64,000 nt of DNA from Candidatus Gottesmanbacteria bacterium GW2011_GWA2_43_14. Lineage in GTDB: Bacteria > Patescibacteriota > Microgenomatia > 2-02-FULL-39-11. This document shows, piece after piece, positions 17,900-49,248 of the stretch. Position 1 is the first letter of the stretch; each line of letters begins with the position of its first letter. The notes under the pieces are model-generated. The model was not told the origin of the DNA. It did no database searches and saw only the letters and a list, made by a program, of their open reading frames with translations. A program made the position numbers and the translations under genes. Location: assembly GCA_000999095.1 (NCBI GenBank), contig LCFP01000002.1, positions 69,736-133,735 of the forward strand, written 5' to 3'.

Positions 17900-19902
17900 T
17901 GAATATCTTAGTTCCCGATTCATGGCTGAGAGAATATTTGCAAACGGAAGCTACACCCCTTGATATCAAACGCTGCCTGTCGCTTTGCGGCCCGTCTGTG
18001 GAAAAAGTTAATGACATAGATAAAGAGAAGGTTTATGAAATCGAGATTACCACAAACCGGGTCGATATGGCTTCCGTTTACGGAATAGCCCGGGAAGCAT
18101 CGGCCATCCTGCCGCGTTTCGGCTTTACCGCCAAATTAAAACCGCTGCCTTTGCCGGAAAAAATCTCAGCGGCCAACGTGTTACCACTTGATATCAGCGA
18201 CCCCCGGCAGCTTTGCCGCCGCATCCTCGCAATTGTCATGGACAATGTCACTCTGGGGCAATCGCCGGAGTCTGTCAGCAAACGCCTGGAAGATAGCGGT
18301 GTCCGCAGTCTGAACAATGCCGTAGACGTGACAAATTACGTCATGCTCGAACTGGGTCATCCTGTACATGTCTTTGACTACGACCGCATAAAAACAAACC
18401 GCTTTTTGATCAGAACCGCCAAAAAATATGAGCCGATAGTCACTTTGGACGGAAAAAAATATCTCCTTAATGAAAATGACGTCATTATCGACGACGGTAC
18501 GGGCAGAGTCATAGATTTACCGGGAATTATGGGAACGGAAAACAGTGTGGTAGCGGAAAATACCAAAAGGATTATCCTTTTTATCGAATCCAACGATCCG
18601 GCCCGTATCAGAAAATCTTCACTTACCTACGGCATCAGGACCATGGCCGCCGCCATCAACGAGAAATCGCCAGATCCGGAACTGGCCTATCTGGCCCTTG
18701 AACGGGGAATCGTTTTGATGAAAAAGTTATGCGGTGCTGAACCGGCCGGCCAAATTATTGACATTTACCCCGAACGGCTAAAGAAAGTGTCAATATCTGT
18801 TTCACCTGAATTCATCAACAGCCGGTTGGGCAAAGATCTGTCCCGGAAGGAAATAACTTCAATACTTTCCTCCTTAAATTTCGATGTAAGTGAGGATAAT
18901 GATAAATTAATCAAAGTTATACCTCCTTCATACCGAAGTTTCGATGTCAGGCTGGCTGAAGACATTGTTGAAGAAGTAGCCCGCATTTACGGCTACCATA
19001 ATTTGCCTTCGTGCCTTATGGAAGGACAAATCCCCATATCGGGCAGTTCCATAAATTTCATCAGGAAAAATCAAATAAAAAAAATGCTGAAATACTGGGG
19101 CTATACCGAAACCTACAGCTATTCATTTATATCAGATGAGCTGATATCCAAAACAAAACTGGACATTACGGATCATCTGAAAATCTCAAATCCGCTGACG
19201 AATGATTTTGCATATATGCGGATATCTCTCGTTCCTTCAATTTTGGAGGCATATGCTAAAAACCAGGCTCTGAAAAAAGACCTCAAGCTTTTCGAACTAT
19301 CTGCGGTATATCAAAAAAAGAAAAATGATTTACCGGTTGAACCGGAGCGGCTGGTCATTGCCGAAAATGCTGATTTTTACCGTCATAAAGGAACAGTTGA
19401 AGGCGTTTTCCGTGAAATTGGCTTAACGGGTTGGACTGTCAAAATTAGTGCTCCGGAATTTTGGCATCCCGGAAAATCACTAACCTATCATTTGGGTAAA
19501 GATATTCTTGGGTATGCGGGACAATTACACCCTGAAGTCGCTTCTTCCTTCCGGATTAAAGAGGAAGTCTGCCTGGCTGAACTGGATATTGAAATTTTAT
19601 TGAAATTCGCCAGTGACGCCAAAATCTTCAAGAGGATTATTTCGACCCCCGAGGTCATTGAAAACTTTTCCGTATATTTAACACCGGAAATTATGGTCGG
19701 AACGCTGATAAGTGACATCAGAAGGATAAATAAATTTATCAGCCTGGTCAGTCTGACAGAGAAGTATTCTGACAGCATTAATCTGGAAATCCGTTATCGG
19801 CACCCCGAACGCAATCTGGATAAAAAGGAAATCGAGTATATTAGACGACAGATAGAAAATCTTATCAAGAAACAATTCGGACTCAAACTTAAAAATATTT
19901 AA
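17899..19902 (+). CDS. pheT: Phenylalanyl-tRNA synthetase beta subunit
   Basis: B3/B4 and B5 domain motifs (ITTNRVDMASVYGIAREASA), 667 aa, ATGA-coupled to pheS. Confidence 0.85.
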   Translation: MNILVPDSWLREYLQTEATPLDIKRCLSLCGPSVEKVNDIDKEKVYEIEITTNRVDMASVYGIAREASAILPRFGFTAKLKPLPLPEKISAANVLPLDISDPRQLCRRILAIVMDNVTLGQSPESVSKRLEDSGVRSLNNAVDVTNYVMLELGHPVHVFDYDRIKTNRFLIRTAKKYEPIVTLDGKKYLLNENDVIIDDGTGRVIDLPGIMGTENSVVAENTKRIILFIESNDPARIRKSSLTYGIRTMAAAINEKSPDPELAYLALERGIVLMKKLCGAEPAGQIIDIYPERLKKVSISVSPEFINSRLGKDLSRKEITSILSSLNFDVSEDNDKLIKVIPPSYRSFDVRLAEDIVEEVARIYGYHNLPSCLMEGQIPISGSSINFIRKNQIKKMLKYWGYTETYSYSFISDELISKTKLDITDHLKISNPLTNDFAYMRISLVPSILEAYAKNQALKKDLKLFELSAVYQKKKNDLPVEPERLVIAENADFYRHKGTVEGVFREIGLTGWTVKISAPEFWHPGKSLTYHLGKDILGYAGQLHPEVASSFRIKEEVCLAELDIEILLKFASDAKIFKRIISTPEVIENFSVYLTPEIMVGTLISDIRRINKFISLVSLTEKYSDSINLEIRYRHPERNLDKKEIEYIRRQIENLIKKQFGLKLKNI

Positions 19903-19965
19903 GCTTTTGCTTCACCTTCTCTTCGGCTGATTTTATGTTAAAATACAGGCGCTTCTAACTATTTA

Positions 19966-20064
19966 ATGGGTAAAATGTCATTTTCCAAAGGTTTTATTTT
20001 TCAGAAATTAGAACAAAAAACGATAATTTTTGACGGAGAAAACTCATTTCTGCATAAAAGGTAA
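19966..20064 (+). pseudogene. 32-aa ORF equal to the N-terminal third of a PqqD-like protein, ended by a premature stop (probable decayed PqqD-like gene).
   Basis: MGKMSFSKGFIFQKLEQKTIIFDGENSFLHKR aligns closely to residues 13-45 of the PqqD-like protein at 48931..49248 (MKKITVNKGFVSRKLGKKTMIFDGEKSLLI). It lies 20 nt upstream of the HprK-like paralog. Confidence 0.4.
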
Positions 20065-20084
20065 TATCAAATGCTTAAAAATTA

Positions 20085-20885
20085 ATGACGAATAATTGTC
20101 TCTTCTTGAATATCGCCGATTATTACTTCAAAATAAATTTTTTGGAAAATGACCTTAAATTTATTTTTGATAATCTCAAAAAAGAAATTGGCAGTAAATT
20201 TTCAGGATTTATCAGTACCAATATCCCAAAAAAATATCAATTTGAAATAAATATTATTGTAAGTAATAAATTTGATGTTTTTTTTAACCGTAATAAAAAA
20301 GATGTATATATAAAGTTTTACAGATATACATCACCTTATACTGTTGAGACTTACTATCAAATAAGTATCTACCAGTTTCAACTGATTTTAATAGATGGGA
20401 TTTACAGAATTTTGATAAAAAATAAAGCCTTTATATTTCATGCATCGGCCAATCTGATCAACGGAAAGGCAAGTTTATTTTTAGGCGGTGATGGCGCAGG
20501 AAAATCAACAATCATGAAAATTTTAAGAAATAAATTTACGCCTTTGGCCGATGACAGCATGATTATCCGGAAAATTAAGGATAAATATTATGCTTTCCAA
20601 ACTCCTTTTATAGAAAAAGAAACGTGGTTAAAGAGAAAAAAGGGGAAATATCTGCTTGGTAAAATATATTTTATAAATAAAGCTGATTTTTATTCGATTA
20701 AAAAAATCAGCAGTATAGAATCAGCACTTAAAAAAACTATAGAGCTAAATAAGCATTTCAGCATAACTGACAAGGAATATTACCAGCAAGTTAAATCGCA
20801 AATGGAATTTACTTCAGACTTTCCCTACCAGTATAATCTCCATTTCGGACTCAATAAAAAGAAGGTATTATCCTTATTCATTTAA
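20085..20885 (+). CDS. HPr-kinase/phosphorylase-C-domain-like P-loop protein (paralog of 48086..48934)
   Basis: AFIFHASANLINGKASLFLGGDGAGKSTIMKIL...PLADDSMII matches the Hpr_kinase_C Walker-A region (H..v..G.G.L..G.SG.GKS...L....LvADD) and aligns to the second copy in the window. A+T-rich codon usage. Confidence 0.55.
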   Translation: MTNNCLFLNIADYYFKINFLENDLKFIFDNLKKEIGSKFSGFISTNIPKKYQFEINIIVSNKFDVFFNRNKKDVYIKFYRYTSPYTVETYYQISIYQFQLILIDGIYRILIKNKAFIFHASANLINGKASLFLGGDGAGKSTIMKILRNKFTPLADDSMIIRKIKDKYYAFQTPFIEKETWLKRKKGKYLLGKIYFINKADFYSIKKISSIESALKKTIELNKHFSITDKEYYQQVKSQMEFTSDFPYQYNLHFGLNKKKVLSLFI

Positions 20886-22077
20886 AATAACGACTGACGA
20901 CAAATTCGGGACTGGTTTTTAACGGAAGGAATGGTAAATATTTTTTTTCAGAATAACCTGCTTTTAAACTCTTCTTCATGATCAGAATGCCGTTGCTGAT
21001 TTTTTTTATCTTTAATCTTTGAAAATATTTTACTAAATTCTCAGTTTGTTGCAGATATATTTTATAATCGGCTTTTAACAAATCATGGCTGATCAGCCAT
21101 GAATAATGATACGGGTCACTTTCACTGAGTATTAAATATAGAATTTTATATTTTTTTTTATTTTGGCCTAACCATCTATCGGCTGATTTTCTAAATTCAT
21201 CTTGTTCTGATTCATGGATAGTACAATTTACATGGCTAAATCCATCATCTGAAAGATGATCGGGAATGCTGCTTATAATCTTTTCCAAAATGTTTATACC
21301 TGGTTTTTGAGATAAGGAAGATATATCACCATTTTCAAGTATTGATTTTATACTGGGGGGATTGGCAACTATTAAATCATATTTTTCGCCGGCTGCAGAT
21401 TCGAATAAATTACTTAATTTGAATTCAATATTTCCTGCTTGATTTAACCGGAAATTAAAATTGCTATAGTTTATTGCCCGAGGATTAATATCAACGGCTG
21501 CAACTTTTTGAGAAATTAGGGAAGATATAATTGCATGAAAACCGCACCCTGTCCCCAAATCAAATACTGATCTGTATTTTTTTTTAACTACGGATTCCCA
21601 GAGATTGATAGAATCATGACTGATGGGGTAAACTGTTTCCTTAAAGGAATATAAAACAAGTTTATCTTCACTGTAGTCAAATCTGAACAAAAAATCGCAG
21701 GTAAAAAAAAGATTGTGATAAGGCAAAATTGAGACTTTGGACTGTATCGCGTTTCCGTATGTTTCCTCTAAGATACTGAGATGTATGTACCTTTTAATCA
21801 TACTGACCGGAATAATTGCGGCTAAATCTTTAATTAATACTTTATTTCCTAAAAAAAATAAATAAAAGCCGATTCCCTGAAATTTCAGGTGTCTGACTTT
21901 CTGGATTAAAACTGCATATTCCGCAAATGATCTTCTGTATGGATCTATATTAGATTGACGGAAGTCTGAAGTAGTATAACCAAGTTGATGAAATAAATTC
22001 CTTAGGGAATCATAGTCCTGCCGCTTAAACAGATGAAGTGGAAGGGTAGTATCAGGAACAATTCTGTCGATTACCAT
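20878..22077 (-). CDS. Class I SAM-dependent methyltransferase, HemK/PrmC-like (NPPS motif), with an ~150-aa N-terminal extension.
   Basis: SAM motif I VFDLGTGCGFHAI, AAVDINPRAI, and catalytic motif IVANPPS (NPPY-type). Confidence 0.6.
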   Translation of the reverse strand: MVIDRIVPDTTLPLHLFKRQDYDSLRNLFHQLGYTTSDFRQSNIDPYRRSFAEYAVLIQKVRHLKFQGIGFYLFFLGNKVLIKDLAAIIPVSMIKRYIHLSILEETYGNAIQSKVSILPYHNLFFTCDFLFRFDYSEDKLVLYSFKETVYPISHDSINLWESVVKKKYRSVFDLGTGCGFHAIISSLISQKVAAVDINPRAINYSNFNFRLNQAGNIEFKLSNLFESAAGEKYDLIVANPPSIKSILENGDISSLSQKPGINILEKIISSIPDHLSDDGFSHVNCTIHESEQDEFRKSADRWLGQNKKKYKILYLILSESDPYHYSWLISHDLLKADYKIYLQQTENLVKYFQRLKIKKISNGILIMKKSLKAGYSEKKYLPFLPLKTSPEFVVSRYFK

Positions 22078-22100
22078 TTAAGGCTGTACTCCCGGGAAAA

Positions 22101-22595
22101 TTATAGTGAAGTATATTTTTCTACTCGCTTTTCAAGCATTCTCAATTTTTTTTCCGTTATACTATTTTTTTCTGTAAGTTCTTTTATTGCTTCAACTAAA
22201 ATTGCTGTAAAGGCAGGGTAGTTAACCCCCAGATAATTTCGGTTAATTTTTTTAGCAAGTTGAGGAAAGGCAATTTTTACGTCTTGTGCCAGCAAACCCA
22301 TGGAGTCGGTGTTTTTCTGAATGCCTAACGACTTAAAAGATCTTTTCCATTGAAATTCATAAGCCTGAAGTCTTTTAATTTTTTCCAAAACCTTCTTAAC
22401 CGGCTTGAGTTTATTTTTTAATTTCCTGTCACTACAGGAGAAACAAGTTCCACAGCAGGCTAAGAGTTCACCATTGACTTCCGGAATGAAATTAAAATAA
22501 CCATCGTATTCATCATATAAATTAAAAAACATATTCAGCTTTATTTTTACTGATTTAATAGCAGGCTTTCTGTAAATGGGATATTTTTTCTTCAT
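22101..22595 (-). CDS. Small protein: an N-terminal ~54-aa Lys-rich/Cys-rich peptide fused to a C-terminal Peptidase-S74-type intramolecular chaperone auto-processing domain.
   Basis: The C-terminal region SDRKLKNKL..LEKIKRLQAYEFQWK..MGLLAQDVKIAFPQL..YLGVNYPAFTAILVEAIKEL matches the phage tail-spike chaperone consensus (sDrrLK..pvsY.y......G.iAQeve...Pe..dYs.LvpllieAikeL). The N-terminal part, ending ..ELLACCGTCFSC, is homologous to the peptide at 47940..48131. Confidence 0.55.
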   Translation of the reverse strand: MKKKYPIYRKPAIKSVKIKLNMFFNLYDEYDGYFNFIPEVNGELLACCGTCFSCSDRKLKNKLKPVKKVLEKIKRLQAYEFQWKRSFKSLGIQKNTDSMGLLAQDVKIAFPQLAKKINRNYLGVNYPAFTAILVEAIKELTEKNSITEKKLRMLEKRVEKYTSL

Positions 22596-22678
22596 AACAG
22601 GGTAATTTTATTAATCTAATTTATAATACCGAAATTAGAGCTTCTATGTCAATCATTTGCATCCGCCCGGCAAATACA

Positions 22679-23701
22679 TCAGCTCTTTTTTAATTCAGTC
22701 CTTTTCTTTTTAATCTCTCCGGCAATTATCTGATGAATTTCTTTTGCATAATGGCAGTGGAAAAAAGTAGAAGGGTTTGCCTGTGATTGAAGATAACGAT
22801 TAATGGCCTCAGACGGATCAAGACAGAGATTGCTGTTTTTACGGCAATATGAAAGATATACCGGATTATTTGCTTCCCCTGCCGAAGTCAGTTCTTTATA
22901 ACTTGGAATATTTACCAGCATCATTGTTGCACCGGATTCGACAACTGCTGTTTGCATTTCATTAAGCAAAGCCATGGCTATTTTATTGGTTTCAGAACGG
23001 ACTTTTTCCTGATTTACATAATATTTATCATAAATCATGCTTAAGATATCTGATAAGATTAAATGAAATTGCCCGGCATATTTTTTGGGGTCTGTTAAAG
23101 GTTGATTAACCTGCGTTAATTTTCCCCCGACAAAGGCGAATTTAGGCTTTTGATAATCAATAAAGCCGTATTTCACTCTTTCTACATCATCACTGTAAAA
23201 ACCAACTATTACCATATCAGGTTGATATTTCAATGCCCGTTTTAATTTTAAGTACTCCTGATCCAAACCATAGCCATGAACTCCCATATTAAAGACTTCA
23301 GTATCTTCGGAGATTTTTTCCAAATAATAGGAATAAGTTTCCTCATCATCCGCACACTCCCCGAATGTATAGGAGTCTCCAATGGCGATAATTCTGTTTT
23401 TTTTTCGTTGATTGATATAATTATCAGGGGCTCTGAAACCTTCTGAATTGATAGTGACTTTCGTGCCGTCAACAAGCTGGGCTTTGGTGTCTTTTTTAGG
23501 AATCCACCCCAATAGAGGATCGAATTCGTAGATTTCAGGAAGATGGGTAGGCGAGTTATTGGTTCGCTGGGTGTGCCAATACCATTTCCACCAGCCTTCT
23601 GATTTTTGATAGTTTATTTGATAGAAAGGTGTTCTTAAAAAAACTTCAGTTATAATTATTCCTGATGTCAAACCAATAATAATTAATAATATTTTTTTCA
23701 T
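22679..23701 (-). CDS. Membrane-anchored SGNH/GDSL-family hydrolase (paralog 1 of 3)
   Basis: N-terminal TM helix; GDS block IIAIGDSYTFGEC. More distant from the two paralogs at 55024 and 60577. Confidence 0.55.
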   Translation of the reverse strand: MKKILLIIIGLTSGIIITEVFLRTPFYQINYQKSEGWWKWYWHTQRTNNSPTHLPEIYEFDPLLGWIPKKDTKAQLVDGTKVTINSEGFRAPDNYINQRKKNRIIAIGDSYTFGECADDEETYSYYLEKISEDTEVFNMGVHGYGLDQEYLKLKRALKYQPDMVIVGFYSDDVERVKYGFIDYQKPKFAFVGGKLTQVNQPLTDPKKYAGQFHLILSDILSMIYDKYYVNQEKVRSETNKIAMALLNEMQTAVVESGATMMLVNIPSYKELTSAGEANNPVYLSYCRKNSNLCLDPSEAINRYLQSQANPSTFFHCHYAKEIHQIIAGEIKKKRTELKKS

Positions 23702-23826
23702 TTCCGGCTTGTTTTTTACCTTATGTATGATATTGTCTGAATTAATCTTATTGAAAGAGATTTTTTATAAGTAATTTTTTAACCCGATCTTCGGCATTAT
23801 CTTAACATATGTTTAATGATTGACTT

Positions 23827-25845
23827 ATGAATTCTAAAAAAAACTCATATAAGAGAATCTCTTTCTTGAAAAAGATTTTTATTCTATCATTTTTATTATC
23901 GATCCCTGTAATATATATTTTTTATGATGATTTTATTCGATCAGCAAAAACTGTTTACTATTTTGATATGGATGACTCTTCACAGGAATTATTGATTCCT
24001 TCCGGTCAAAATCATCCGGTATTGAAAATAGCGGGTAAAGTCAGGGAAATTACAGGCATCAAAAATAAAGCCTTAGAGCTTGAAGAACAGAACCGTTTGA
24101 CCTGCCTAAATAATATTACTTGCCTCAAATTAGATATCGACAAAGGTTTGAGTCTGATTCTTTGGATTAAAATAAAATCCGGTGATAAAAAACCCTTTCA
24201 ACAGGAAATTATCTCATTAACCCAGAATTACGGTGATAATTTTAAGAAAAAAAGTTTTTACAACGTCTTTGACTTGGCAACATTAAACAGTCAGGCCAAG
24301 GGATATATCAGCGGTATCTTTGACGGCAGGTACCTATATTTAATTCCGATAAAAAATGATTTGAAATATCATGGTCTCGTTGCTAGGTATGATACATCCA
24401 AAGTTTTTAACCAAACCAACTCCTGGGAGATATTTGATACGGAAAAAATCAATAAAGCCGCCAAAGGCTACGGCGGGGGAGTCTTTGACGGTCAATATAT
24501 CTACCTGGTTCCCAATTATAACGATAATACCCGTTCCGGTCTTGTAGTCAGATTTGATACCCGAAAGGAATTCCGGAATAAGTCTTCCTGGGAGATTTTT
24601 GATACCACTCTGCTTAATGACAATTCCCGAGGTTTTTGGGGCGGGATATTTGACGGCCGTTATATTTATTTTGTACCACATCACCACAACAAAGATTATT
24701 CCGGCGTAATTACGCAATATGACACAACTTCAGCATTTTCTTCTCCTGATGCCTGGAGAATTACCGACATCACTAAATTCAACAGTCGAGCCAAAGGATT
24801 TTTAGGAGGAATATATGACGGCAGGTATGTCTATTTTATCCCTAACCGTACCGGCGTAGACATTTTCAGCGGTTTGTTGGGGATTTATGACACCGGAAAA
24901 GATCTGCAATCAGCCTCTGCCTGGCAATTTTTCGATATTCAAAAATTGAATCCCCAGGCAAAAGGCTTTGCCGGTGGAGTCTTTGACGGCAGGTACATCT
25001 ACCTGGCACCTTTATTTTCCGATCCTGTTAATTTTAACGGACTGTCGGCCAGGTATGACACCCGGTTGCCCCTGCTTTCTCCTTTAGCCTGGCAATTTAA
25101 CAACTTGAGCAATCTGGATCAGAATGCTAAAGGCTTTATTGATATCGCCTTTGACGGTAAAAATCTATACTATATTCCGTTCAGAAACCGCTACACTGAA
25201 AGTGAAGAAATTATGGCTGGAGGACTGAAATCCTGGTGTTCTGCCGATCAAACAGGCGGATTCAGCGGTACTATTGCCCGTTATAAGACAGGTGATGATT
25301 TTAGCCGAAATCAGTCATGGTCTTTTTTCGATTTAACTTCTATTGATTCAACATATAAAGGTTTTTGGGGCGGCGCTTTTGACGGGCGTTTCCTTTATTA
25401 TATTCCGGTTAAGTTTGCCTGCTCAATCTTAAGCAGCCAAATTATAAGGTATGATACGGTCGATACAGCACTCAGCCAAATAAAACTGATTGTCTCTCCC
25501 GTCTTTCAAAGCAGCTTTTCGTCCCAGAATAAGTCGGATCTTGTTTTAACCGGAAATATATTACGTCAGAATATCTCAATCTACTCCGGGGAAAATATTG
25601 CCGATAATCAGTGGCATCAGCTTGCTTTGGTAATTGACGGTTCTTCAGCCAGTCTCTATGTTGATGGCAAACAAAAAAAGGTAAAATATCCTGATCAGAT
25701 CAAGAATAAAATCGGGGATTTTTTGCTGACTGTCGGTAATGCAGACAGGGAGAATACGGCCGACTTTGCAATTGACGAAATTCAAATATATAATCACTCC
25801 CTGACTATAGAGAACATTAATCAACTGTATCTTAAATTCAAATGA
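23827..25845 (+). CDS. Membrane-anchored repeat protein: ~7-8 tandem ~48-aa repeats (probable beta-propeller) plus a C-terminal LamG/concanavalin-like domain.
   Basis: Repeats N..AKGF.GG[IV]FDGRY[IV]Y[LF][IV]P....sGL[VI].RYDT......SW.[IF]FD recur at least 7 times. The C-terminus NQWHQLALVIDGSSASLYVDGK...EIQIYNHSLT is a LamG-like motif. N-terminal TM anchor. Confidence 0.5.
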   Translation: MNSKKNSYKRISFLKKIFILSFLLSIPVIYIFYDDFIRSAKTVYYFDMDDSSQELLIPSGQNHPVLKIAGKVREITGIKNKALELEEQNRLTCLNNITCLKLDIDKGLSLILWIKIKSGDKKPFQQEIISLTQNYGDNFKKKSFYNVFDLATLNSQAKGYISGIFDGRYLYLIPIKNDLKYHGLVARYDTSKVFNQTNSWEIFDTEKINKAAKGYGGGVFDGQYIYLVPNYNDNTRSGLVVRFDTRKEFRNKSSWEIFDTTLLNDNSRGFWGGIFDGRYIYFVPHHHNKDYSGVITQYDTTSAFSSPDAWRITDITKFNSRAKGFLGGIYDGRYVYFIPNRTGVDIFSGLLGIYDTGKDLQSASAWQFFDIQKLNPQAKGFAGGVFDGRYIYLAPLFSDPVNFNGLSARYDTRLPLLSPLAWQFNNLSNLDQNAKGFIDIAFDGKNLYYIPFRNRYTESEEIMAGGLKSWCSADQTGGFSGTIARYKTGDDFSRNQSWSFFDLTSIDSTYKGFWGGAFDGRFLYYIPVKFACSILSSQIIRYDTVDTALSQIKLIVSPVFQSSFSSQNKSDLVLTGNILRQNISIYSGENIADNQWHQLALVIDGSSASLYVDGKQKKVKYPDQIKNKIGDFLLTVGNADRENTADFAIDEIQIYNHSLTIENINQLYLKFK

Positions 25846-25880
25846 AGGAAAACGCTGACAGAAGCCTGTTCTTCCTATTT

Positions 25881-26438
25881 CTATAATCGGGTTATTTGCC
25901 AAGCATAAAGTGCCTGCCCGCTTTTTGACTGGGAGATATCCATGGAAACTGTTATTTTAATCCTGTCTCCGAGCTGAAGTTCGGTTAATTCCAATTTATT
26001 TTCCGACAAATCCGTAAAAGTGTACTGTGATTTCTGTTTTTCAGTATCTTCAGGAAACTTCATCGGATGAAGTCCACCATCTTCACCTCTAAGGATAAAA
26101 GTAAAAGGAGGCTTATCAGAAATCATAATTTCCTGAATTTCTCCCTCTAAAGTTACGCTGACGACAAATTGTTTAAGCACATCAGGGTTAATTTTGAGGG
26201 AGCTGTCGAGCAAATTCATCAAGAGAACACTGTCCAATCCGTTAATACTCACAGCCGGTGACGGAAAAGCCGGCGCCGGAAAATTGCTCTTGTTATTTTG
26301 TTCATTTATTCCAGCCAGATTCCGGAAGATAGCCTGGAAGTTGAAATTGAGAGAGTAATAGTAAATAATTTCAATAATCGTCAGAGTCAATAAAAGACCC
26401 AGTATTATTATTAGGAGTTTGCGAGAACGAATTATCAT
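25881..26438 (-). CDS. Hypothetical membrane-anchored protein
   Basis: ORF with an N-terminal TM segment (LLIIILGLLLTLTIIEII). Start set at the internal ATG (MIIRSRK) to avoid abutting the divergent downstream gene. No motif recognised. Confidence 0.3.
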   Translation of the reverse strand: MIIRSRKLLIIILGLLLTLTIIEIIYYYSLNFNFQAIFRNLAGINEQNNKSNFPAPAFPSPAVSINGLDSVLLMNLLDSSLKINPDVLKQFVVSVTLEGEIQEIMISDKPPFTFILRGEDGGLHPMKFPEDTEKQKSQYTFTDLSENKLELTELQLGDRIKITVSMDISQSKSGQALYAWQITRL

Positions 26439-26471
26439 CTTCCTTCTTATCGTATAAAATGACTGATACAT

Positions 26472-27935
26472 ATGTCAATAAAAATTTATATCAGGCATAT
26501 TCCGGTTTTAATCAATAAGCATAAAGTATTCTTTTTAATTTTTTGTCTTACTTCAGTTTTATTCATCGGATTTCTGTATCGGGATCCGCTGTCCGACTGG
26601 GATGAGTGTATCTATGCAGAATATGCCAAAGAAATGAAATTAACCGGTAATTTTTGGACTTATACCTGGAATGGCAACCCGATTCTGGAAAAACCTCCTC
26701 TTTACGGTTGGCTTATGCAAATACCCTATCTTTGGGGGATTAATGAATTCACCTCCAGAATATCATCCGTTATCTTCAGTCTGGGAATCCTGACCTTAAT
26801 TTACTTTTTTGCTTCCAAATATATGTCACGGAAAATCGCTCTGATGGCTGTCCTTATTTATTTAGCAAGTCCGACGAATCTTAATTATGCCGTAAAAGTC
26901 AATACCGATATCGGTTTTACTTTTTGGCTAAATTTATATGCTTTTCTAATAATTTTTTCAGGCCGTAGACTTTTAACTTTATCTGTGGCTGCTTTCTCTC
27001 TGACCCTAGCCACATTGCATAAGGGATTAAGTTCTTTATTCTTCCTGTCTGTCATGCCGGTAATTGATATATACCAGCGTAAAAAACAAGTGTCTTCAAA
27101 TTTTCTACTTCTCTTTGTAATTGTTTTTTCTTTAATTATTCCCTGGCATATATATCAATTTCTGATCTGGAAAAATGGTTTTTCCAATACCTACCTGACA
27201 GAACACCTTTTCATCCGTTTTTTCAATAACATCTTTCTGCATAAAAATTTATTTTATTACCCGGTTGTTTTAGCCCGTGATTTTTTTCCCTGGTGGATGA
27301 TTCTGGTCATTTTCTGTTACCAGTATTTCAGAAAAGAAATAAAGTTATCACAATTTTACGAAAAGTATTTTCCGAATGTTTTTTTAATGACTGCTATTCC
27401 GGGTTTATTTTTTATGGCGGCAAGAACTCAGGTTAAATGGTATTTAATGCCCCTCTATCCCTTAATCTCAATCTTACTGGCGGTTATACTTAACAGGTAT
27501 TTTTTAAAAATGAACTTAAAACTGCAGACGGTCATTAAAATTCTGCTCATCTCCAATGTAATATATTCATTTTTACTGATAATTCAACCGTTTCGTTTCA
27601 AAAAAAATGTTTCTCCAAGCACTGAATCATTCCGTTACATAAACAATCTTCCCCAGAAAAGCTTTAATTATTTGGTTGAATCAAATTACCGCCAAATATA
27701 TAATAAACCCCCGGTCCGTACAATACCGGCACAATTCATTTATGGTGAAAAACCGTGTTCGGTATTTTATAGCGGTAAAAAAGTTAATTTATTCTATCAT
27801 CCGGACGAATTTGCCGCTGCTCTGGAAACTAAGTCCGGACTATATTTATTCAGCAAATCTGACAAGAGTCTGCTTGGTAAAATCACACTGAAGTATATTT
27901 TCCAAAATGAAGACTATGGTTTAATTTTAAGGTGA
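26472..27935 (+). CDS. GT-C fold glycosyltransferase, family 39/83-like (PMT/ArnT-like)
   Basis: Polytopic membrane protein with the first-loop motif DPLSDWDECIYAEYAKEM (DE..YA.. acceptor-loop signature of PMT/ArnT). Confidence 0.6.
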   Translation: MSIKIYIRHIPVLINKHKVFFLIFCLTSVLFIGFLYRDPLSDWDECIYAEYAKEMKLTGNFWTYTWNGNPILEKPPLYGWLMQIPYLWGINEFTSRISSVIFSLGILTLIYFFASKYMSRKIALMAVLIYLASPTNLNYAVKVNTDIGFTFWLNLYAFLIIFSGRRLLTLSVAAFSLTLATLHKGLSSLFFLSVMPVIDIYQRKKQVSSNFLLLFVIVFSLIIPWHIYQFLIWKNGFSNTYLTEHLFIRFFNNIFLHKNLFYYPVVLARDFFPWWMILVIFCYQYFRKEIKLSQFYEKYFPNVFLMTAIPGLFFMAARTQVKWYLMPLYPLISILLAVILNRYFLKMNLKLQTVIKILLISNVIYSFLLIIQPFRFKKNVSPSTESFRYINNLPQKSFNYLVESNYRQIYNKPPVRTIPAQFIYGEKPCSVFYSGKKVNLFYHPDEFAAALETKSGLYLFSKSDKSLLGKITLKYIFQNEDYGLILR

Positions 27936-36624: not shown

Positions 36625-37359
36625 TCAAAAGAATAAATTATCATTGCCTACAGGAACCTGTGACGGAAATTCCGGCGGTTGACGATCCAAAACCATATTT
36701 TGCGAGACTCTTTCAATAATTTGCCGGTATTCGTGTTTGATTTGCGGCAGGGGCGAATCAATTTTGCCTATGGTCTTTGGCAGCGGATTAAAATAGGCAT
36801 TACCGTCAATACTGGAGCGGACCGAACCGTCATCAAGCATGGTCAGCTGTAAGTGGTTAACAGTTATCATTCTCCCCGATAAATTAGTTAAGGATCTCAA
36901 AAAAATTTCTATTTGCCCGATATCTCCGGTCACTTCAAGGTTAATCGGTAAAAGAAATGAAGGCTCCCCGACCGGTTTTTTTAAAAGTGCCGATGAAGTA
37001 GATACTACCCCAAGCTGAAAATCGCTTCTGGTAACAAAGACTCCGGTTGACTGCTGTAATTGGTCAAGTGTAGAAAATAAAAGGACATAGTCTTTTGAGG
37101 CGGGAACAATCATATTTAACCTGGCGAAATCTTCCGCCAGGACGTCCCTGTTTTGCAAAGTCAACAATGCTTCTTTTTTTTTCAGCTGCACTAATTTAGT
37201 TGTCAGTTCTTTCCGCTCAGTAAAAATAGTCGTAATCCGCAGGAAATTCGGCAGAAGAAGTTTGACAGTCAATATCAGTATAAACAAAACTACCACAAAA
37301 GAGGAAAGGACTGATTCGTATTTAAGGATAAAAGATTTAATTTTCAGACGGTTTTTCAT
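36625..37359 (-). CDS. Type IV pilus assembly protein PilO-like (bitopic, coiled-coil)
   Basis: N-terminal TM, coiled-coil, then a periplasmic domain. Positioned after pilM-pilN and overlapping by 4 nt. Assignment is by context and architecture only. Confidence 0.4.
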   Translation of the reverse strand: MKNRLKIKSFILKYESVLSSFVVVLFILILTVKLLLPNFLRITTIFTERKELTTKLVQLKKKEALLTLQNRDVLAEDFARLNMIVPASKDYVLLFSTLDQLQQSTGVFVTRSDFQLGVVSTSSALLKKPVGEPSFLLPINLEVTGDIGQIEIFLRSLTNLSGRMITVNHLQLTMLDDGSVRSSIDGNAYFNPLPKTIGKIDSPLPQIKHEYRQIIERVSQNMVLDRQPPEFPSQVPVGNDNLFF

Positions 37360-37922
37360 GAAGTAGCTGCCGGACTTTTCCTATATTTCAGGGAAATGGT
37401 CATGGTGTAACTGCCGTCCTTGTCACGCAAAATCCCCTGAGCTTTTATATCTGAAAACACGGCATCTATCTGCTTGTTTAAAAGCTCGCCTACAAAAACT
37501 TCCAGAGCCGTCAGGGAATAGGCTGTCAGGGAAAATGACATCTGTCCGTTGCGGTCGACAGTCAGTGTTTTTATATCAATCTCATCTGAATCTATCCCAT
37601 AGACTTCCGGTAAAGTATCGGCAACGGTACTGAAATTTTTAGCTAAAATTTTGTTGATCACATCAAGTATATTGAAAGTTGCCAGATATAAGCCTTCAGT
37701 CGCCTGGTAAGACGTTATTTTCTTTTCGCTGGAGGTTACTTCGGCTTTTAATTTGTTGTATTCGCTGGTATTCAACTTGAGATAAATCAGGGAAATGGAA
37801 TATAACAGGACAAACAATATAAGGCAGACAGCCGCGGTTACGGGGGCAAATTTTTTCAGCCTTTTCAATACAGGCAAGTCATCATCTTTCTCGATTATCA
37901 GATTGATTGTTTTCTTGCTCAT
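37356..37922 (-). CDS. Type IV pilus assembly protein PilN-like
   Basis: INLIIEKDD N-terminus (INLLP-like), a single TM, and a coiled-coil. Coupled to pilM. Confidence 0.5.
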   Translation of the reverse strand: MSKKTINLIIEKDDDLPVLKRLKKFAPVTAAVCLILFVLLYSISLIYLKLNTSEYNKLKAEVTSSEKKITSYQATEGLYLATFNILDVINKILAKNFSTVADTLPEVYGIDSDEIDIKTLTVDRNGQMSFSLTAYSLTALEVFVGELLNKQIDAVFSDIKAQGILRDKDGSYTMTISLKYRKSPAATS

Positions 37923-38944: not shown

Positions 38945-39004
38945 ATATTTAGTATCTAATCACCCGGCAACAATGTCAATCCGGCAAGGAAAAAATAACT
39001 CAGG

Positions 39005-44884: not shown

Positions 44885-46048
44885 ATGAAAATCGCCATGG
44901 TTGTTTATGCCCAATATTCCCGCGATGCCAGAGTCAGGCGTTATGCCGAAAGCCTGGCAGGCAAAGGACACCAGGTTGATATTATTTGTTTAAAGGAGGA
45001 TTATTCACCGCAATATAAAAAGCTGAAGCTTTATAAGTTTCCTTTTCCCAGAAGAAGGAAAAACTTTTCCTGGTATTTTTTAGAGTACGGTTTATTTTTT
45101 TGCTATACTTTCGGTCTTCTGTCAATTCTCTCTTTGTTCAAAAAATATAAGATTGTCCATATTCACAATATGCCGGATTTCCTGGTTTTTACTGCCGTTA
45201 TGCCCAAATTCCGGGGCAGCCGGATCATTCTTGACATGCATGATCCCATGCCGGAACTGTTGATGACTAAATACCGTTTGAATCACTCCCACTGGCTGAT
45301 GAATTTGGTATATTTTTTGGAGAGGCAAGCCTTTATTTTCGCCGACAAAATAATAACTGCCAACAGTGAGTTTAAAAAGATATTTTTGGAAAGGCAGACT
45401 ATTTCCGCTGATAAGATTGAAGTCATACTGAATTACCCTGATCCCAAATTATTTAAACCCGTGAGCAGAAAAACGGCATCGGAAAATTTCATTTTAATGT
45501 ACATGGGAACAGTTGACGAGCGTTTCGGGCTGGATATCGCCTTGGAGGCAATCCCGGCAATTAAAAATAAAATTCCTCAAATCAAGTTGATTATCATCCC
45601 GAAAATATCCGGCGAGGGCAATTACTACAGCCAATTAGTGCAGCGTATTACCAAGCTGAAAATCGGACGGTATGTGGAAATACGTAAGCCGGTGGCGCTG
45701 GATGAAATCGCCAAAGAAATTCACCTGGCTGATATCGGGTTAACCTTGGTCAAAAAAAATCTTTTTACGGAAAAAATCTTACCTTTGAAACTGACGGAAT
45801 TTATGGCGGGCGGTATTCCCGTGATTGCCACAAGAACCAAACTACTGAGCAGATATTTTTCCGGCAAAATGATCTGTTATCTTACGGAAAATACTTCAGC
45901 GGAATTCAGCCGTAAAGTTCTGTTTCTATACCGGAATAAAAAACAAAGGGAATTATACGGCAAAAATGCCCTGTTGTTTTTCCGGAAATATAACTGGCAC
46001 ATGGAAGAAAAAAAATATTACCGCATAATCCGGACATTGACACAGTAA
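44885..46048 (+). CDS. Glycosyltransferase family 4 (GT-B fold)
   Basis: C-terminal E..GIPVIAT motif (LTEFMAGGIPVIATRT). TATAAT 8 nt upstream of the ATG. Confidence 0.7.
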   Translation: MKIAMVVYAQYSRDARVRRYAESLAGKGHQVDIICLKEDYSPQYKKLKLYKFPFPRRRKNFSWYFLEYGLFFCYTFGLLSILSLFKKYKIVHIHNMPDFLVFTAVMPKFRGSRIILDMHDPMPELLMTKYRLNHSHWLMNLVYFLERQAFIFADKIITANSEFKKIFLERQTISADKIEVILNYPDPKLFKPVSRKTASENFILMYMGTVDERFGLDIALEAIPAIKNKIPQIKLIIIPKISGEGNYYSQLVQRITKLKIGRYVEIRKPVALDEIAKEIHLADIGLTLVKKNLFTEKILPLKLTEFMAGGIPVIATRTKLLSRYFSGKMICYLTENTSAEFSRKVLFLYRNKKQRELYGKNALLFFRKYNWHMEEKKYYRIIRTLTQ

Positions 46049-47325
46049 TGACGTACTCCCGAATATTAAATCTTCTGATAAAAAAAAAACAGATAATAGT
46101 CAGTGCTGAAGGCGGCAGCATGCTGCCCGTACTTCATCCCGGTGATGTGCTGTATCTGACGAAAACCAATTTCTCAAAAGTCAATGAAGGGGAAATCATT
46201 TTTGCCAAAAAAAAAGGTAAATTTTTCATCCACAGGATAATTTATAAAGGGAAGAATTATCTTATCACCAAAGGAGACGCAAACCGTGTTTCAGACGGTA
46301 AAATTGCACCGGGTCAAATTTTTGCCAAACTGATTAAACTGAAAAGGCAAGGCCGGATTCTTTCTCCGGAATACTATAACCTCATCCAGTCCACCTATTA
46401 CATCAGGGAAATAAACCGTGTAATAAAGGCTTTTAAACGCCATCAGCTTGATTATGTGTTCCTAAAAGGTTTACCCCTTTATCTTTATCTTCAGAAGATG
46501 ATCCCATTGCGTTTCTATGCAGATTGTGATCTTTTGATCGCCCGGAAGGATTACCGGAAGGCAGCCTTTCTTTTGGAAAAAATAGGATTTAAATTCAATG
46601 ACCGGTCATTTTCCGGCCTCCATCGTCTGCTTAAAAAAAAACCGACCGAATATATGTTTATCAAGAAAAAAGGGGTTTTCCCGGTAGTTCTGGATATCCA
46701 CTTGGAACCGGTATTTTTAATGAACCAGTTAAGCGGGCTGGATTGCTTATATCCCCAACTTTACCTCGATAAATTATCCTCGGATTTTCTTAAAAAAAAG
46801 CAAGACGCCGTCATCAACAACAGTATGTTCAGACTGCTGTCTTCCTCTCATCAAATCATTTATCTTGCCCTTCATTTTTTCCATCACAATTTCAGGGGTT
46901 TTCACAGATTACAGCTTCTCCGGGATTCAGTTCAACATTATTCGGGACCATGGGAGAAACCGGCTGAAATGATTAAAAAATACAAGCTGGATAATTTCGT
47001 TTACCCTGCATTTGCGGCCGTTAAGCGCTTCTACCCGGGGACATTAACCGGCAAATACCTGACTGCTATAACTCCTTCGGCCGCAGTCTTAGATAAAACA
47101 AAAGCAATATTGAAGGATATTGAACTTTCTTCTGAAGAAAGCCAACTGAAAGAGGGAATCGAGAGGTTTATGAATATATTTCTGTTTTCCCCTCAGCCGA
47201 ATTTAAAAAAAATATCCGTATTCCTCAATCCGCAGGTTCTATATTCAATTTTATTCACAGTTTTTGAACAGCTGCAACATATTGACCGGTTGATATTTCT
47301 TAAGAAAAAATCCGCCGAATCGTAA
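46048..47325 (+). CDS. Fusion protein: an N-terminal SipW/Sec11-type (S26B) signal-peptidase-like domain without a TM anchor, plus a C-terminal PF14907-like nucleotidyltransferase domain.
   Basis: S26B motifs GGSMLPVLHPGDVLYL (Ser), FIHRIIY (His), ITKGDANRVSDG (Asp). The nucleotidyltransferase pattern FLKGLPLYLYLQKMIPLRFYADCDLLIARKDY..AAFLLEKIGF matches (hKG..Y...R...DxDLLV...A..LL...GF). TAATG-coupled to the upstream GT4. Confidence 0.55.
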   Translation: MTYSRILNLLIKKKQIIVSAEGGSMLPVLHPGDVLYLTKTNFSKVNEGEIIFAKKKGKFFIHRIIYKGKNYLITKGDANRVSDGKIAPGQIFAKLIKLKRQGRILSPEYYNLIQSTYYIREINRVIKAFKRHQLDYVFLKGLPLYLYLQKMIPLRFYADCDLLIARKDYRKAAFLLEKIGFKFNDRSFSGLHRLLKKKPTEYMFIKKKGVFPVVLDIHLEPVFLMNQLSGLDCLYPQLYLDKLSSDFLKKKQDAVINNSMFRLLSSSHQIIYLALHFFHHNFRGFHRLQLLRDSVQHYSGPWEKPAEMIKKYKLDNFVYPAFAAVKRFYPGTLTGKYLTAITPSAAVLDKTKAILKDIELSSEESQLKEGIERFMNIFLFSPQPNLKKISVFLNPQVLYSILFTVFEQLQHIDRLIFLKKKSAES

Positions 47326-47373
47326 TTGACGGGCAATGATTTATAGCCTATTCTGAGAGTAGTATGTATTAAT

Positions 47374-47934
47374 ATGGCTAAACTACTGAAAACAGCCTTT
47401 GTTATTCTATTGGTCATAAGTTTTATTGAGGTTTTTTATTATTTATTTTACTTGAATTCCTTTAAACTGCTGTTCTCCAAACCGGATACAGCTGATATCA
47501 GCGGGAAACAGGCTGTTAATGAAACGGAGCCTCCTGGTACTCCGGCTATATCGGTCACTCCTGCCGTTCATCCCGATGTATTAGAACGGCTGCGTAATTA
47601 TAAGTATGATCCCAAATCGAAAATGTCGATTAAAACTGAATTACAAACAGAGATAAAAGACATCGATTATGACGGCAGGCAAAGTGGAGGGGATTTTTAC
47701 CCGTTTGCCTTAAAAATCGTCACTACCTCCGGAAGAGATTTTTGGATGTACTTTCCTAATTTCTTATATCAAAAGGTAAAAGTCTACTCGAAAACTGACG
47801 GAGTAGATCAACCGCTGAAGCCTGGGGATCTAAAAATCGGGGATACTGTCCTGCTGGTAGAAACATATAATCCTCGTTTTGCTCCTGATAATCCTGAACA
47901 GGTTATTAGTTATGAAATATTCAGGATTCAATAG
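47374..47934 (+). CDS. Hypothetical membrane-anchored protein
   Basis: N-terminal TM (AFVILLVISFIEVFYYLF) and a Pro/Thr linker. No motif recognised. Confidence 0.35.
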   Translation: MAKLLKTAFVILLVISFIEVFYYLFYLNSFKLLFSKPDTADISGKQAVNETEPPGTPAISVTPAVHPDVLERLRNYKYDPKSKMSIKTELQTEIKDIDYDGRQSGGDFYPFALKIVTTSGRDFWMYFPNFLYQKVKVYSKTDGVDQPLKPGDLKIGDTVLLVETYNPRFAPDNPEQVISYEIFRIQ

Positions 47935-47939
47935 CCCAT

Positions 47940-48131
47940 ATGCCTCACAGTCGTAAAAGAAGTTCGTCTAAAAAATATAGTAGACCAAAATTAACCCTTT
48001 CCAAAGTAAAATTAAATCTGTTTTCATTTCCTTTGGAATATTTTCCGGATGAGGATTTTTTTTTAAATTCGGTTAATGCAGCAGTTTATTGTCCTGGTTT
48101 TTGTGATCCGGAAGCCTGCAATAAATGCTGA
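47940..48131 (+). CDS. Candidate 63-aa Lys/Arg-rich, C-terminally Cys-rich peptide (putative modified-peptide precursor), paralogous to the N-terminal part of 22101..22595.
   Basis: MPHSRKRSSSKKYSRPKLTLSKVKLNLFSFPLEYFPDEDFFLNSVNAAVYCPGFCDPEACNKC aligns to KKKYPIYRKPAIKSVKIKLNMFFNLYDEY..FNFIPEVNGELLACCGTCFSC. It overlaps the convergent HprK-like gene 3' end by 46 nt and contains a T9 run, so a spurious ORF cannot be excluded. Confidence 0.4.
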   Translation: MPHSRKRSSSKKYSRPKLTLSKVKLNLFSFPLEYFPDEDFFLNSVNAAVYCPGFCDPEACNKC

Positions 48132-48934
48132 TTCCCTTTCAAAAATAAATCCCATAGTTTTTGCCTATCAAGTCCCGAATGGAGGTCAAAAAATGTGTCA
48201 TTTTTATCAATAAAATCCAGCAAGTATTTCATCTGCTTTCCGGTATGACCGCTGTCCGTGAAAAAAACCCTGATCAATTTTTTCAGGACAAGCTGTTTGT
48301 CTTTTATTTTTTTAGACCGGTAATTCATGTCCTTGTGTAGAAAAAATAATTTACCCATTTTATAACGCCTGACGGATTTCCCGACCCATGCCTGTTTATC
48401 AATCATCGGAGCCTGATATAGAAAATAGTTATTTTTTTCTTTTTTGATTATAAGCGTATCATCTGCCAGCGGAAGACATTTTTCAGCCAGAAGGCGAAGG
48501 ATGGTGGATTTCCCCGCTCCTGATTTTCCCAAGAAAATATGAGCCTGATCATCAATATAAACAGCGGAACCGTGGAATATAAACCCTTTGTTCTCTGCCA
48601 GTAAATTCTGCAGAATAGTCCTTATGATGATGATAAGCTGCACAATTCCTATATGATAAAATGAAATTGCGGTATTCTTCCCTTTATTTTCATAAAAATT
48701 AATAAAGTGCTTGTTGCTTTTCTTTTCGCTTAAGACATCCATACCCAATCTGTCAATAAAATGTACGGTGGCATCCACGTGGATGTAGGTTTTTTTGACT
48801 ATAAAACCTCCCAGGGAAAATTCAACCTCTTTTATCAGATGATGCCGGGTGGAAGGCCAGTCTGTCGGATGGAAAACGAGTCTGAAGGTAAAGCCTGCAA
48901 TTTTAAGATAAACGGAGGAGTTTGACTGTTTCAT
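48086..48934 (-). CDS. HPr-kinase/phosphorylase-C-domain-like P-loop protein (putative peptide kinase)
   Basis: GFIFHGSAVYIDDQAHIFLGKSGAGKSTILRLLAEKCLPLADDTLII matches the Hpr_kinase_C Walker-A region. Coupled by a 4-nt overlap to the PqqD-like gene. Confidence 0.6.
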   Translation of the reverse strand: MKQSNSSVYLKIAGFTFRLVFHPTDWPSTRHHLIKEVEFSLGGFIVKKTYIHVDATVHFIDRLGMDVLSEKKSNKHFINFYENKGKNTAISFYHIGIVQLIIIIRTILQNLLAENKGFIFHGSAVYIDDQAHIFLGKSGAGKSTILRLLAEKCLPLADDTLIIKKEKNNYFLYQAPMIDKQAWVGKSVRRYKMGKLFFLHKDMNYRSKKIKDKQLVLKKLIRVFFTDSGHTGKQMKYLLDFIDKNDTFFDLHSGLDRQKLWDLFLKGNQHLLQASGSQKPGQ

Positions 48935-49248
48935 CCATGATCGGCTTTATTTCCTATACTGATGATGTTTTCTTTGGCTAATACTTTTAAAAAGTCATCG
49001 ACATCCCGTTTGGCCGTATCGTTATTCAAGCCGTATTCCGACTTAAGAAATAAAGTTATTTCTTCCTTTCCTTCCCCCTTTAACAGTCTTTTAAATATTT
49101 CCGAGGCGGTTTCATTCAGAGTTATCAGCAGGGATTTTTCTCCGTCAAAGATCATCGTCTTTTTGCCCAACTTCCTGCTTACGAATCCCTTGTTGACAGT
49201 GATTTTTTTCATGACTTTTCCTCGACTGATGTGATGAGCCCATCCCAT
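48931..49248 (-). CDS. PqqD-family protein (RiPP recognition element-like)
   Basis: ~105 aa; KKTMIFDGEKSLLITLNETASEIFKRLLKGEGKEEITLFLKSEYGL..AKRDVDDFLKVLAKENII follows the PqqD pattern (beta-strands then helices; ..L.D.E.G.YY.LN..A..IW.LL.G..T..EI...L...Y.V..E.A..DV..FL..L...GLI). Confidence 0.6.
   Translation of the reverse strand: MGWAHHISRGKVMKKITVNKGFVSRKLGKKTMIFDGEKSLLITLNETASEIFKRLLKGEGKEEITLFLKSEYGLNNDTAKRDVDDFLKVLAKENIISIGNKADHG

Follow-up and report, generated by a model that had tools for sequence, protein, structure and literature searches.

A candidate peptide precursor with a putatively self-removing Peptidase_S74 follower in a Gottesmanbacteria genome

What does the self-cleaving chaperone domain of phage tail spikes do at the end of a bacterial protein that carries no tail spike? 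The question is raised by an open reading frame (ORF) at 22101..22595 on the minus strand of a 64,000-nucleotide stretch of contig LCFP01000002.1 from Candidatus Gottesmanbacteria bacterium GW2011_GWA2_43_14. This whole stretch is termed the window here. The ORF encodes 164 amino acids (aa) from an ATG start and ends in a Peptidase_S74 domain, also termed the intramolecular chaperone autoprocessing (ICA) domain. With a probability of about 0.68, its product is read from the sequences as a three-part precursor of a RiPP (a peptide made by ribosomes and modified after translation) with a self-excising, trimerizing S74 follower. A first-pass annotation of the locus, which gave the ORF and its sequence strings correctly, had proposed such an autocatalytic follower. 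The proposal is the best-supported reading of the sequences, resting on S55, D56 and K60, which are invariant in 18 relatives, and on the position of the stop codon in about 20 others.

In the proposed pathway, residues 1-46 would serve as the leader for recognition; the leader family, not catalogued before, accompanies ScmC-like genes, chiefly in candidate-phyla bacteria of groundwater. Residues 47-54 (CCGTCFSC) would be the core that becomes the product, and residues 55-164 the self-removing follower. The S74 domains of three precursor chains would trimerize via their C-terminal helices, and the Ser55-Lys60 dyad would cut between Cys54 and Ser55 to give a 6.36-kDa leader-core peptide and a 12.87-kDa S74 fragment. 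This cut would leave the core with the same free C-terminus that relatives without S74 obtain by a stop codon. The leader would be removed after Ala46, most plausibly by the S26-type domain of the protein encoded at 46048-47325. Tailoring of the core would probably fall to a 399-aa methyltransferase and the ScmC-like protein in the window's sub-family, and to YcaO/SagB azole-forming enzymes in sister sub-families. The parts of the gene and a promoter-like site before it are as follows:

22458..22595, minus strand: leader, residues 1-46; basic and Cys-free, with the motif Y-R-K-P-x-I-K-x-x-K-I-K-L-N-M-F-F and the end E-L-L-A46
22434..22457, minus strand: candidate core, residues 47-54, CCGTCFSC; the hypervariable segment of the family
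22101..22433, minus strand: Peptidase_S74/ICA domain (putative follower), residues 55-164 and stop; Ser55-Lys60 dyad, F81/W83, Q104, C-terminal helix 126-162
22623..22652, minus strand: promoter-like site TTGACA-18 nt-TATTAT, 27 nt upstream of the precursor ATG; a consensus match only

The gene is real and not a chance ORF, because the identical 164-aa protein is found on 11 contigs from several groundwater samples, full-length relatives exist at 30-46% identity, and the TTGACA-18-TATTAT site near the ATG is the top sigma-70-like site (11/12) in the 6.8-kb region 19800-26600. Taken together, promoter-like sites are no more frequent there than in shuffled sequence. All four Cys residues of the N-terminal 54 aa lie within the last eight. 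The 54-aa length and the lack of a fiber noted in the first-pass annotation thus stand, but the cargo is not one Cys-rich peptide; it divides into a 46-aa Cys-free leader and an 8-aa core. The GenBank record of the protein (KKS98384.1) is named "Distal tail fiber protein", and public names across these proteins are this one and "tail fiber domain-containing protein". The protein has no NCBIfam match, and no curated precursor family model fits it.

The S74 domain and its catalytic residues

The Pfam profile PF13884 (Peptidase_S74) matches residues 55-113 with E=3.2e-11 and 43.8 bits, against a gathering cutoff of 22, which confirms the domain assigned to the C-terminus in the first-pass annotation. 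Compared with the PDB, a profile of the family finds 6f45 (3.9e-18), 8jov, the ICA domain of MyRF (7dc3; 2e-10) and 3gud of phage GA-1. An AlphaFold2 model made with the family alignment was used instead of the single-sequence model (predicted local distance difference test, pLDDT, of 45); it has pLDDT >90 over residues 60-164 and a 37-residue C-terminal helix at 126-162. The top PDB match of this model in Foldseek is MyRF 7dc3 (probability 1.0, template modeling score 0.55-0.65, root mean square deviation 3.0 Å over 115 columns), followed by 3gud and 3gw6, the chaperones of GA-1 and endosialidase NF (endoNF). Within the leader, residues 1-10 reach a pLDDT of 79 and residues 22-48 stay below 50. 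The former value hints that the N-terminus of the leader may dock in cis on the S74 domain.

An alignment of 18 full-length relatives, which are 28-41% identical to the window's protein, has invariant residues at S55, D56, K60, K72, F81, W83, G100, A103, Q104, P111, Y126 and L133. The Ser55 codon is AGT (22431-22433) and is followed by D-R-K-L-K60, so that Lys stands at +5 from Ser, the spacing of S911/K916 in endoNF and S587/K592 in MyRF. In the profile alignment, S55, K60, F81, W83, L102 and Q104 correspond to MyRF S587, K592, Y615, Y617, I637 and Q639; L102 is a conservative substitution in the I637 column, and F81, W83 and Q104 do not vary. Ser55 is therefore the Ser at the scissile position, as first proposed. 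Moreover, the released GA-1 chaperone chain in 3gud begins at the residue aligned with Ser55.

The function of these residues has been studied in MyRF, which is cut between P586 and S587, that is, N-terminal to Ser. S587 and K592, the equivalents of endoNF S911 and K916, are indispensable for cleavage by mutagenesis, and Y615/Y617, R590, I637 and Q639 position the scissile strand (PMC8326128). Cleavage of MyRF needs trimerization of the ICA domain but not an upstream fold, unlike that of endosialidase NF, in which an Arg from the upstream triple beta-helix takes part (PMC8326128). Of the structural properties of ICA domains, trimerization via the C-terminal helix is conserved best (PMC8326128). 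In the protein studied here, cleavage would have to be MyRF-like and independent of an upstream fold, not endoNF-like, because the residues before Ser55 are hypervariable. Every sequence and fold feature of S74 domains that could be tested is present except the usual cargo: the expected trimeric fiber or beta-helix is absent, and the upstream part is 54 aa without fiber repeats.

A C-terminal trimerizing helix would also suit a protein from which S74 is never released. In such a small trimeric protein, S74 would act as a trimerization or solubility scaffold that shows three modified Cys-rich segments, for example metal-binding or surface-associated ones. The helix is predicted here as in other ICA domains, the neighboring genes encode envelope and secreted proteins, and nothing is obviously gained from a follower that merely recreates a stop codon. 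However, S55, D56 and K60 are invariant in 18 divergent members, which speaks against a pure scaffold because scaffolding would not require these residues. Relatives without S74, with the same leader and similar cores, also work without a trimer domain. Permanent retention of S74 is judged unlikely.

A leader shared with peptides that lack S74

An exhaustive search of 1.84 billion representative proteins retrieved 23,358 S74 proteins. Of the top 150, 17 are 142-176 aa long and match the 164-aa query from residue 1, and the remaining short S74 proteins are ordinary fiber fragments. A later profile search added six family proteins of 139-163 aa, for a total of at least 24 including the window's own. 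Other routes gave less: a word-indexed homologue search with the 164-aa protein returned itself and ordinary tail-fiber fragments only, and a genome-collection scan with an 8-sequence alignment, whose pattern lay in the generic S74 helix, yielded one family member (L010; comparison loci carry L numbers) among 80 loci. The contigs of several relatives are shorter than 2 kb and offer little gene context.

Members of this family have a basic leader with the motif K-[KR]-Y-x-K-P-x-I-x-x-K-K-I-x-L-N-[LF]-F, then a variable spacer and a near-invariant L-[LY]-A. A hypervariable core of 7-23 aa, in which Cys, Ser, Thr and Gly usually abound, precedes the start of S74, S-D-x-[RK]-[LF]-K. The Ala at position 46 is invariant across the 18 S74-bearing proteins and is also present in the S74-less peptides as split into leader and core; the leader motif itself is common to at least 18 S74-bearing and about 20 S74-less peptides. 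The 8-mer CCGTCFSC is found unchanged in relative P0177 and within QGCCGTCFSC in P0019 and P0020, despite whole-protein identities to the window's protein of only 41-46%. The residue before the S74 Ser is Cys in 11 of the 18 tabulated sequences, and cores free of Cys occur as well (LRSHNYS, GSGGGGVT). A conserved leader joined to a hypervariable core within one family is the pattern of RiPP precursors. Neither Pfam nor NCBIfam has a model for this leader family.

The leader also separates these proteins from phage fibers. A hidden Markov model (HMM) of the leader matches none of 11,559 control ORFs from 79 ordinary S74 loci with an E value below 1.3, and none of 3,036 ORFs of 80 viral-contig loci with one below 0.61. 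A remnant or miniature tail-fiber protein, unconnected to peptide natural products, is what the GenBank tail-fiber names imply. The cargo of the viral S74 ORFs sampled is mostly >100 aa, and viral contigs also carry small S74 proteins of 149-193 aa (L152 2854-3303, L164 2815-3324, L129 2740-3321 and L139 3303-3842). Short cargo alone is thus not unique to the precursor family. However, the 54-93-aa viral cargos are fiber-like, Cys-free and leader-less, whereas the N-terminal part of the 164-aa protein has no fiber region and is homologous to peptides of ScmC/PqqD cassettes. Additionally, there are no phage genes in the 64-kb window, and relatives of the protein adjoin YcaO and SagB. A prophage or tail-fiber origin was rejected on gene context and leader homology and is barely credible; the "tail fiber" labels on these proteins are a mis-annotation.

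A second locus in the window, locus B (46048-49976), encodes one of the S74-less peptides:

46048..47325, plus strand: S24/S26 signal-peptidase-I-like domain fused to NTP_transf_5 (Pfam and NCBIfam); candidate leader peptidase, 24 kb from the precursor
47374..47934, plus strand: single-pass membrane protein, copy B
47940..48131, plus strand: 63-aa S74-less precursor with core VYCPGFCDPEACNKC; same leader family; listed at NCBI as hypothetical protein UV73_C0002G0122
48086..48934, minus strand: ScmC-like protein, copy B
48931..49248, minus strand: PqqD-family peptide chaperone of the RiPP recognition element type, the only intact one in the window; PF05402 at 46.4 bits and lasso-type PqqD models

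The first-pass annotation had taken the 47940 peptide for a homologue of the N-terminal part that lacks S74 and lies beside an S26-peptidase fusion, and it is indeed a true homologue of that part. The 63-aa peptide matches the 164-aa protein in BLASTP with E=0.003 and the leader HMM with E=5.8e-13, the latter profile having been built from 17 sequences with the peptide among them. It has no NCBIfam or Pfam match. Its gene and that of ScmC copy B, on opposite strands, overlap convergently at their 3ʹ ends by 46 nt (48086-48131).

More such peptides were found by scanning metagenome contigs with an alignment of ScmC-like proteins and then applying a leader-only HMM to the loci retrieved. About 17 of 20 independent ScmC loci hold peptides of 42-76 aa with the same leader and L-L-A junction; all adjoin an ScmC-like gene and end after a core of 5-44 aa. 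The stop codon of about 20 S74-less relatives takes exactly the place that the Ser of S74 has in the others. This register is the strongest sequence-level argument that the S74 domain would exist in order to be removed. The cassette around the S74-less peptides consists of ScmC and, in most loci, PqqD and the S24/S26-peptidase/NTP_transf_5 fusion, with the membrane protein usually directly upstream of the peptide; DUF4330-like and Wzy_C proteins are often added, and sometimes an MsbA-type ABC exporter. This recurrent cassette, which has no curated name, lies in envelope-glycosylation loci of groundwater metagenomes (46048-49976 of the window, L090, L093, L095, L097, L099-L103 and L106-L110).

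Removal of the leader would require a cut at its other end. The motifs G-x-S-M-x-P, H-R-x-I-Y-K and K-G-D-N-N of the S24/S26 domain are kept in 13 homologues, and we take them to be those of the Ser/His, endoplasmic reticulum/archaeal type of signal peptidase I. Signal peptidase sites follow the -3/-1 rule; the S26-type domain is a natural candidate for the cut after the invariant Ala, because L-x-A fits this rule. The same observation bears on the suggestion, made in the first-pass annotation, that S74 at the window's precursor and the S26-peptidase fusion at locus B are alternative solutions to one processing step. The two are indeed distributed reciprocally between these loci, and in six of the seven S74-bearing loci with at least 5 kb of context no S24-NTP_transf_5 gene lies in the retrieved context. 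However, S74 would act on the C-terminal side of the core and S26 on its N-terminal side, in keeping with the invariant L-L-A at the leader/core junction, so they are not alternatives. Peptides without S74 need no C-terminal cut, because the stop codon already ends them at that position, and L120 has an S74 precursor and an NTP_transf_5 gene together. The suggestion was therefore abandoned as very improbable.

Gene neighborhoods and the possible role of the follower

An ScmC-like gene adjoins the precursor in six of the seven S74-bearing loci with at least 5 kb of context. Some of these loci contain RiPP enzymes. The gene order in L122 is membrane protein, precursor, ScmC, YcaO, SagB and a B12-radical-SAM (S-adenosylmethionine) enzyme (methyltransferase), and that in L120 is precursor, SagB, YcaO and ScmC, with an NTP_transf_5 gene nearby. 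The YcaO of L120 belongs to the SagD family at 219.9 bits against a cutoff of 219.25, and that of L122 has SagD as its best model at 155 bits, below the cutoff; the SagB dehydrogenases score 149 (L120) and 126 (L122) bits against 78.4. SagD-type YcaO and SagB are the hallmark enzymes of thiazole/oxazole-modified peptides. The S74-less locus L093 carries both as well, and L009 has a SagB fragment beside an S74 precursor. L010 combines the S74 precursor with ScmC, a DUF4330-like protein and Wzy_C, and L119 and L124 combine it with the membrane protein and Wzy_C. L125 is a minimal operon of overlapping membrane protein, precursor and ScmC genes, with nothing else relevant within 10 kb on each side.

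The YcaO (420-431 aa) and SagB genes beside ScmC in L120 (2047-4160) and L122 (1099-3922) stand alone, and the retrieved context of both has no SagC/E1-like partner; ScmC might be the partner protein of these YcaOs. Genes for IS1595- and IS4-type transposases and a PIN-domain protein, together with S24-NTP_transf_5-like fragments, flank the S74/YcaO cluster of L120 (4305-8857), which suggests recent rearrangement there. In a neighbor-joining tree of ScmC, which has long branches and no support values and is suggestive only, the S74-linked copies are scattered, and L120 (with S74) pairs with L093 (without), both of which have YcaO/SagB. The scatter suggests that the S74 module may be gained or lost easily, and the L120/L093 pairing that it is an optional module of the precursor family.

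PqqD is absent from all seven S74-bearing loci with at least 5 kb of context and present in 16 of 20 S74-less loci, an exploratory contrast between few, related and partly short contigs that are not independent. This pattern raises another role for S74, that of a true intramolecular chaperone or template that may replace the missing PqqD. Either three cores would be held in register, or the C-terminal carbonyl of the core would be passed as an ester to the Ser of S74 and then attacked by a nucleophile of the peptide, giving, before release, an inter-chain cross-linked or C-terminally cyclized (thiolactone or lactam) product. A nucleophile directly after the scissile bond, as found here, would imply an ester formed by N-to-O acyl shift, which other nucleophiles could intercept. 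The frequent Cys before the Ser (11/18) and the unexpectedly high pLDDT of leader residues 1-10 are consistent with this role. However, cores without Cys exist in the family, and common descent or short contigs may lie behind the PqqD anticorrelation. We hold templating or cyclization to be improbable; if true, it would be a self-contained, enzyme-free macrocyclization or templating device built into a RiPP precursor.

The window's precursor lies in locus A, with these neighbors:

19966..20064, plus strand: remnant of a PqqD-type N-terminus, 32 codons, MGKMSFSKGFIFQKLEQKTIIFDGENSFLHKR; phmmer E=3.4e-6 to the locus-B PqqD
20085..20885, plus strand: ScmC-like (HPr-kinase-related P-loop) protein, copy A; TIGR04249 and PF27840; 33% identical to copy B
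20878..22077, minus strand: 399-aa HemK/PrmA-type SAM methyltransferase protein; Pfam MTS and PrmA; 23 nt downstream of the precursor on the same strand; candidate tailoring enzyme
22679..23701, minus strand: GDSL/SGNH-like protein; weak Pfam GDSL; directly upstream of the precursor, with a 50% homologue in the same place in L126
23827..25845, plus strand: secreted-type repeat protein with C-terminal LamG (Laminin_G_3); homologues adjoin S74 precursors in L006 and L126
25881..26471, minus strand: single-pass membrane protein, copy A; 24% identical to copy B
26472..27935, plus strand: PMT_2 (GT39-like) glycosyltransferase; Pfam PMT_2; 42% homologue at the same edge of L126

Seven genes of locus A (PMT_2, membrane protein, repeat/LamG protein, GDSL-like protein, precursor, methyltransferase and ScmC) all recur in L126 at 33-50% identity, around a precursor with the identical CCGTCFSC, and only the repeat-protein gene is placed differently. 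The methyltransferase homologue there has 399 aa and 33% identity and likewise adjoins the precursor. Because this neighborhood is conserved, the methyltransferase and ScmC are the best candidates for acting on CCGTCFSC. The PqqD remnant just 5ʹ of ScmC copy A gives locus A the appearance of a derived cassette copy from which PqqD was lost.

Several other features of locus A recur. Homologues of the membrane protein (171-196 aa, with an invariant Glu within the membrane helix) nearly always lie directly 5ʹ of a precursor, often overlapping it (L006, L010, L119, L122, L124, L125 and L126), and the family has no Pfam or PDB relative. The repeat protein has about eight FDGRY[IL]YF...YDT repeats, with LamG in the window copy, and recurs beside CCGTCFSC-type precursors (L006 1337-1822, L126 3796-5118). 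Two paralogues of the GDSL/SGNH-like protein are encoded at other sites in the window. The remainder of the window encodes housekeeping proteins (PheT, TyrS, RecG, RNase III, TrmD, a class-A penicillin-binding protein and PilM) and envelope-glycosylation proteins including glycosyltransferases. It also encodes two adjacent leucine-rich-repeat proteins of 280 and 286 aa (53259-54101 and 54156-55016, plus strand), which are unusual for a small candidate-phyla genome, and a 1,061-aa protein (39856-43041, minus strand) without a Pfam match at E<=1e-4. Upstream of the latter is a PilM-type cluster (36625-39859), in which several proteins likewise lack a Pfam match.

Several points weigh against the self-removing follower. 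YcaO, SagB, radical-SAM enzymes and a dedicated exporter are all absent from the 64-kb window, so that the pairing of YcaO and SagB in one cluster that marks thiazole/oxazole-modified microcins (TOMM) and linear azole-containing peptides is found in L120, L122 and L093 but not in the window. For recognition of the leader, locus A holds only the 32-codon PqqD remnant, and the intact PqqD lies 26 kb away. The Arg that helps cleavage of endoNF sits upstream, where the residues here are hypervariable. A neighbor-joining tree of S74 domains (95 aa) is compatible with a single or a multiple origin of the precursor-linked domains, and all comparison loci are metagenomic and partly redundant. Finally, a stop codon alone would yield the C-terminus that this follower recreates. 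Possibly the follower keeps a Cys-rich peptide of such small size protected or soluble until folding or modification has taken place; it could also trimerize the substrate for the enzymes, or template or cyclize the core.

Comparison with known systems

Parts of this system resemble RiPP clusters of known kinds. Some lasso clusters, of the paeninodin/pseudomycoidin type, carry an HPr-kinase-like kinase, a nucleotidyltransferase and PqqD, and locus B has a similar trio of HPrK-related P-loop protein, NTP_transf_5 and PqqD. However, the AsnB of the window (51407-53308) is by its scores a true glutamine-hydrolyzing asparagine synthase (TIGR01536, 434 bits with a cutoff of 267; lasso cyclase, 256 with a cutoff of 525), and no transglutaminase-type (B2) protease was seen among the window proteins scanned. 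The lasso-peptide reading of locus B was rejected on the AsnB scores. The likeness to TOMM and linear azole peptides (SagA/SagBCD, microcin B17, plantazolicin) is closer, with a leader, a Cys/Ser/Thr/Gly-rich core, and SagD-type YcaO and SagB beside precursors with S74 (L120, L122) and without it (L093). The differences are that an ScmC-like protein is present where no SagC/E1-like partner was seen and that the window's locus has no YcaO/SagB. We know of no TOMM or linear azole precursor with a folded catalytic follower.

In bottromycin (BotAH/PurAH) and AgrD (AgrB), a C-terminal extension is likewise removed to free the C-terminus of the core (PMC10885120). A separate enzyme makes that cut, whereas the S74 follower would remove itself. 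A 2023 review of the proteases that act on RiPPs contains neither S74 nor S26 and names no precursor that cleaves itself (PMC10885120). The literature searched, which left most subscription journals outside its scope, contained no paper linking S74, PF13884 or the endosialidase chaperone with RiPPs or YcaO. As far as found, the combination of leader, core and S74 has not been described, although a RiPP precursor and an S74 domain are each of an already known kind. Candidate-phyla bacteria are usually regarded as poor in natural-product genes, and these loci expose in them an uncatalogued precursor family with its ScmC/membrane-protein cassette.

The phage tailspike and fiber domains (endosialidase NF, the GA-1 neck appendage and the long tail fiber 6f45) share with the window's domain the Pfam family, the Ser-Lys(+5) pair, the cut N-terminal to Ser (here predicted), the C-terminal trimerizing helix and the position at the end of the polypeptide. 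Their cargo is a trimeric beta-helix of several hundred residues, in contrast to a 46-aa leader and 8-aa core, and the context here is chromosomal and non-phage. Hypervariable as they are, the upstream residues of the window's protein cannot supply a helper like endoNF Arg897, which raises the question of S74 cleavage without a folded fiber upstream. If such cleavage takes place, the domain would be a 110-aa C-terminal tag, traceless, trimer-gated and self-removing, that accepts nearly any sequence upstream of it and would be useful for peptide production. The ICA domain of MyRF (7dc3), the best structural match, sets a precedent for the recruitment of S74 to free a cargo other than a fiber. 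The cargo of MyRF is a large DNA-binding trimer, set free from a membrane anchor, whereas here a 54-aa peptide would be released and processed further. If the follower does cut itself off, this would be, as far as found, the first RiPP precursor to carry its own protease. Phage fibers and the MyRF proteins of animals and Dictyostelium would then be joined by a third, independent use of the tail-spike chaperone domain.

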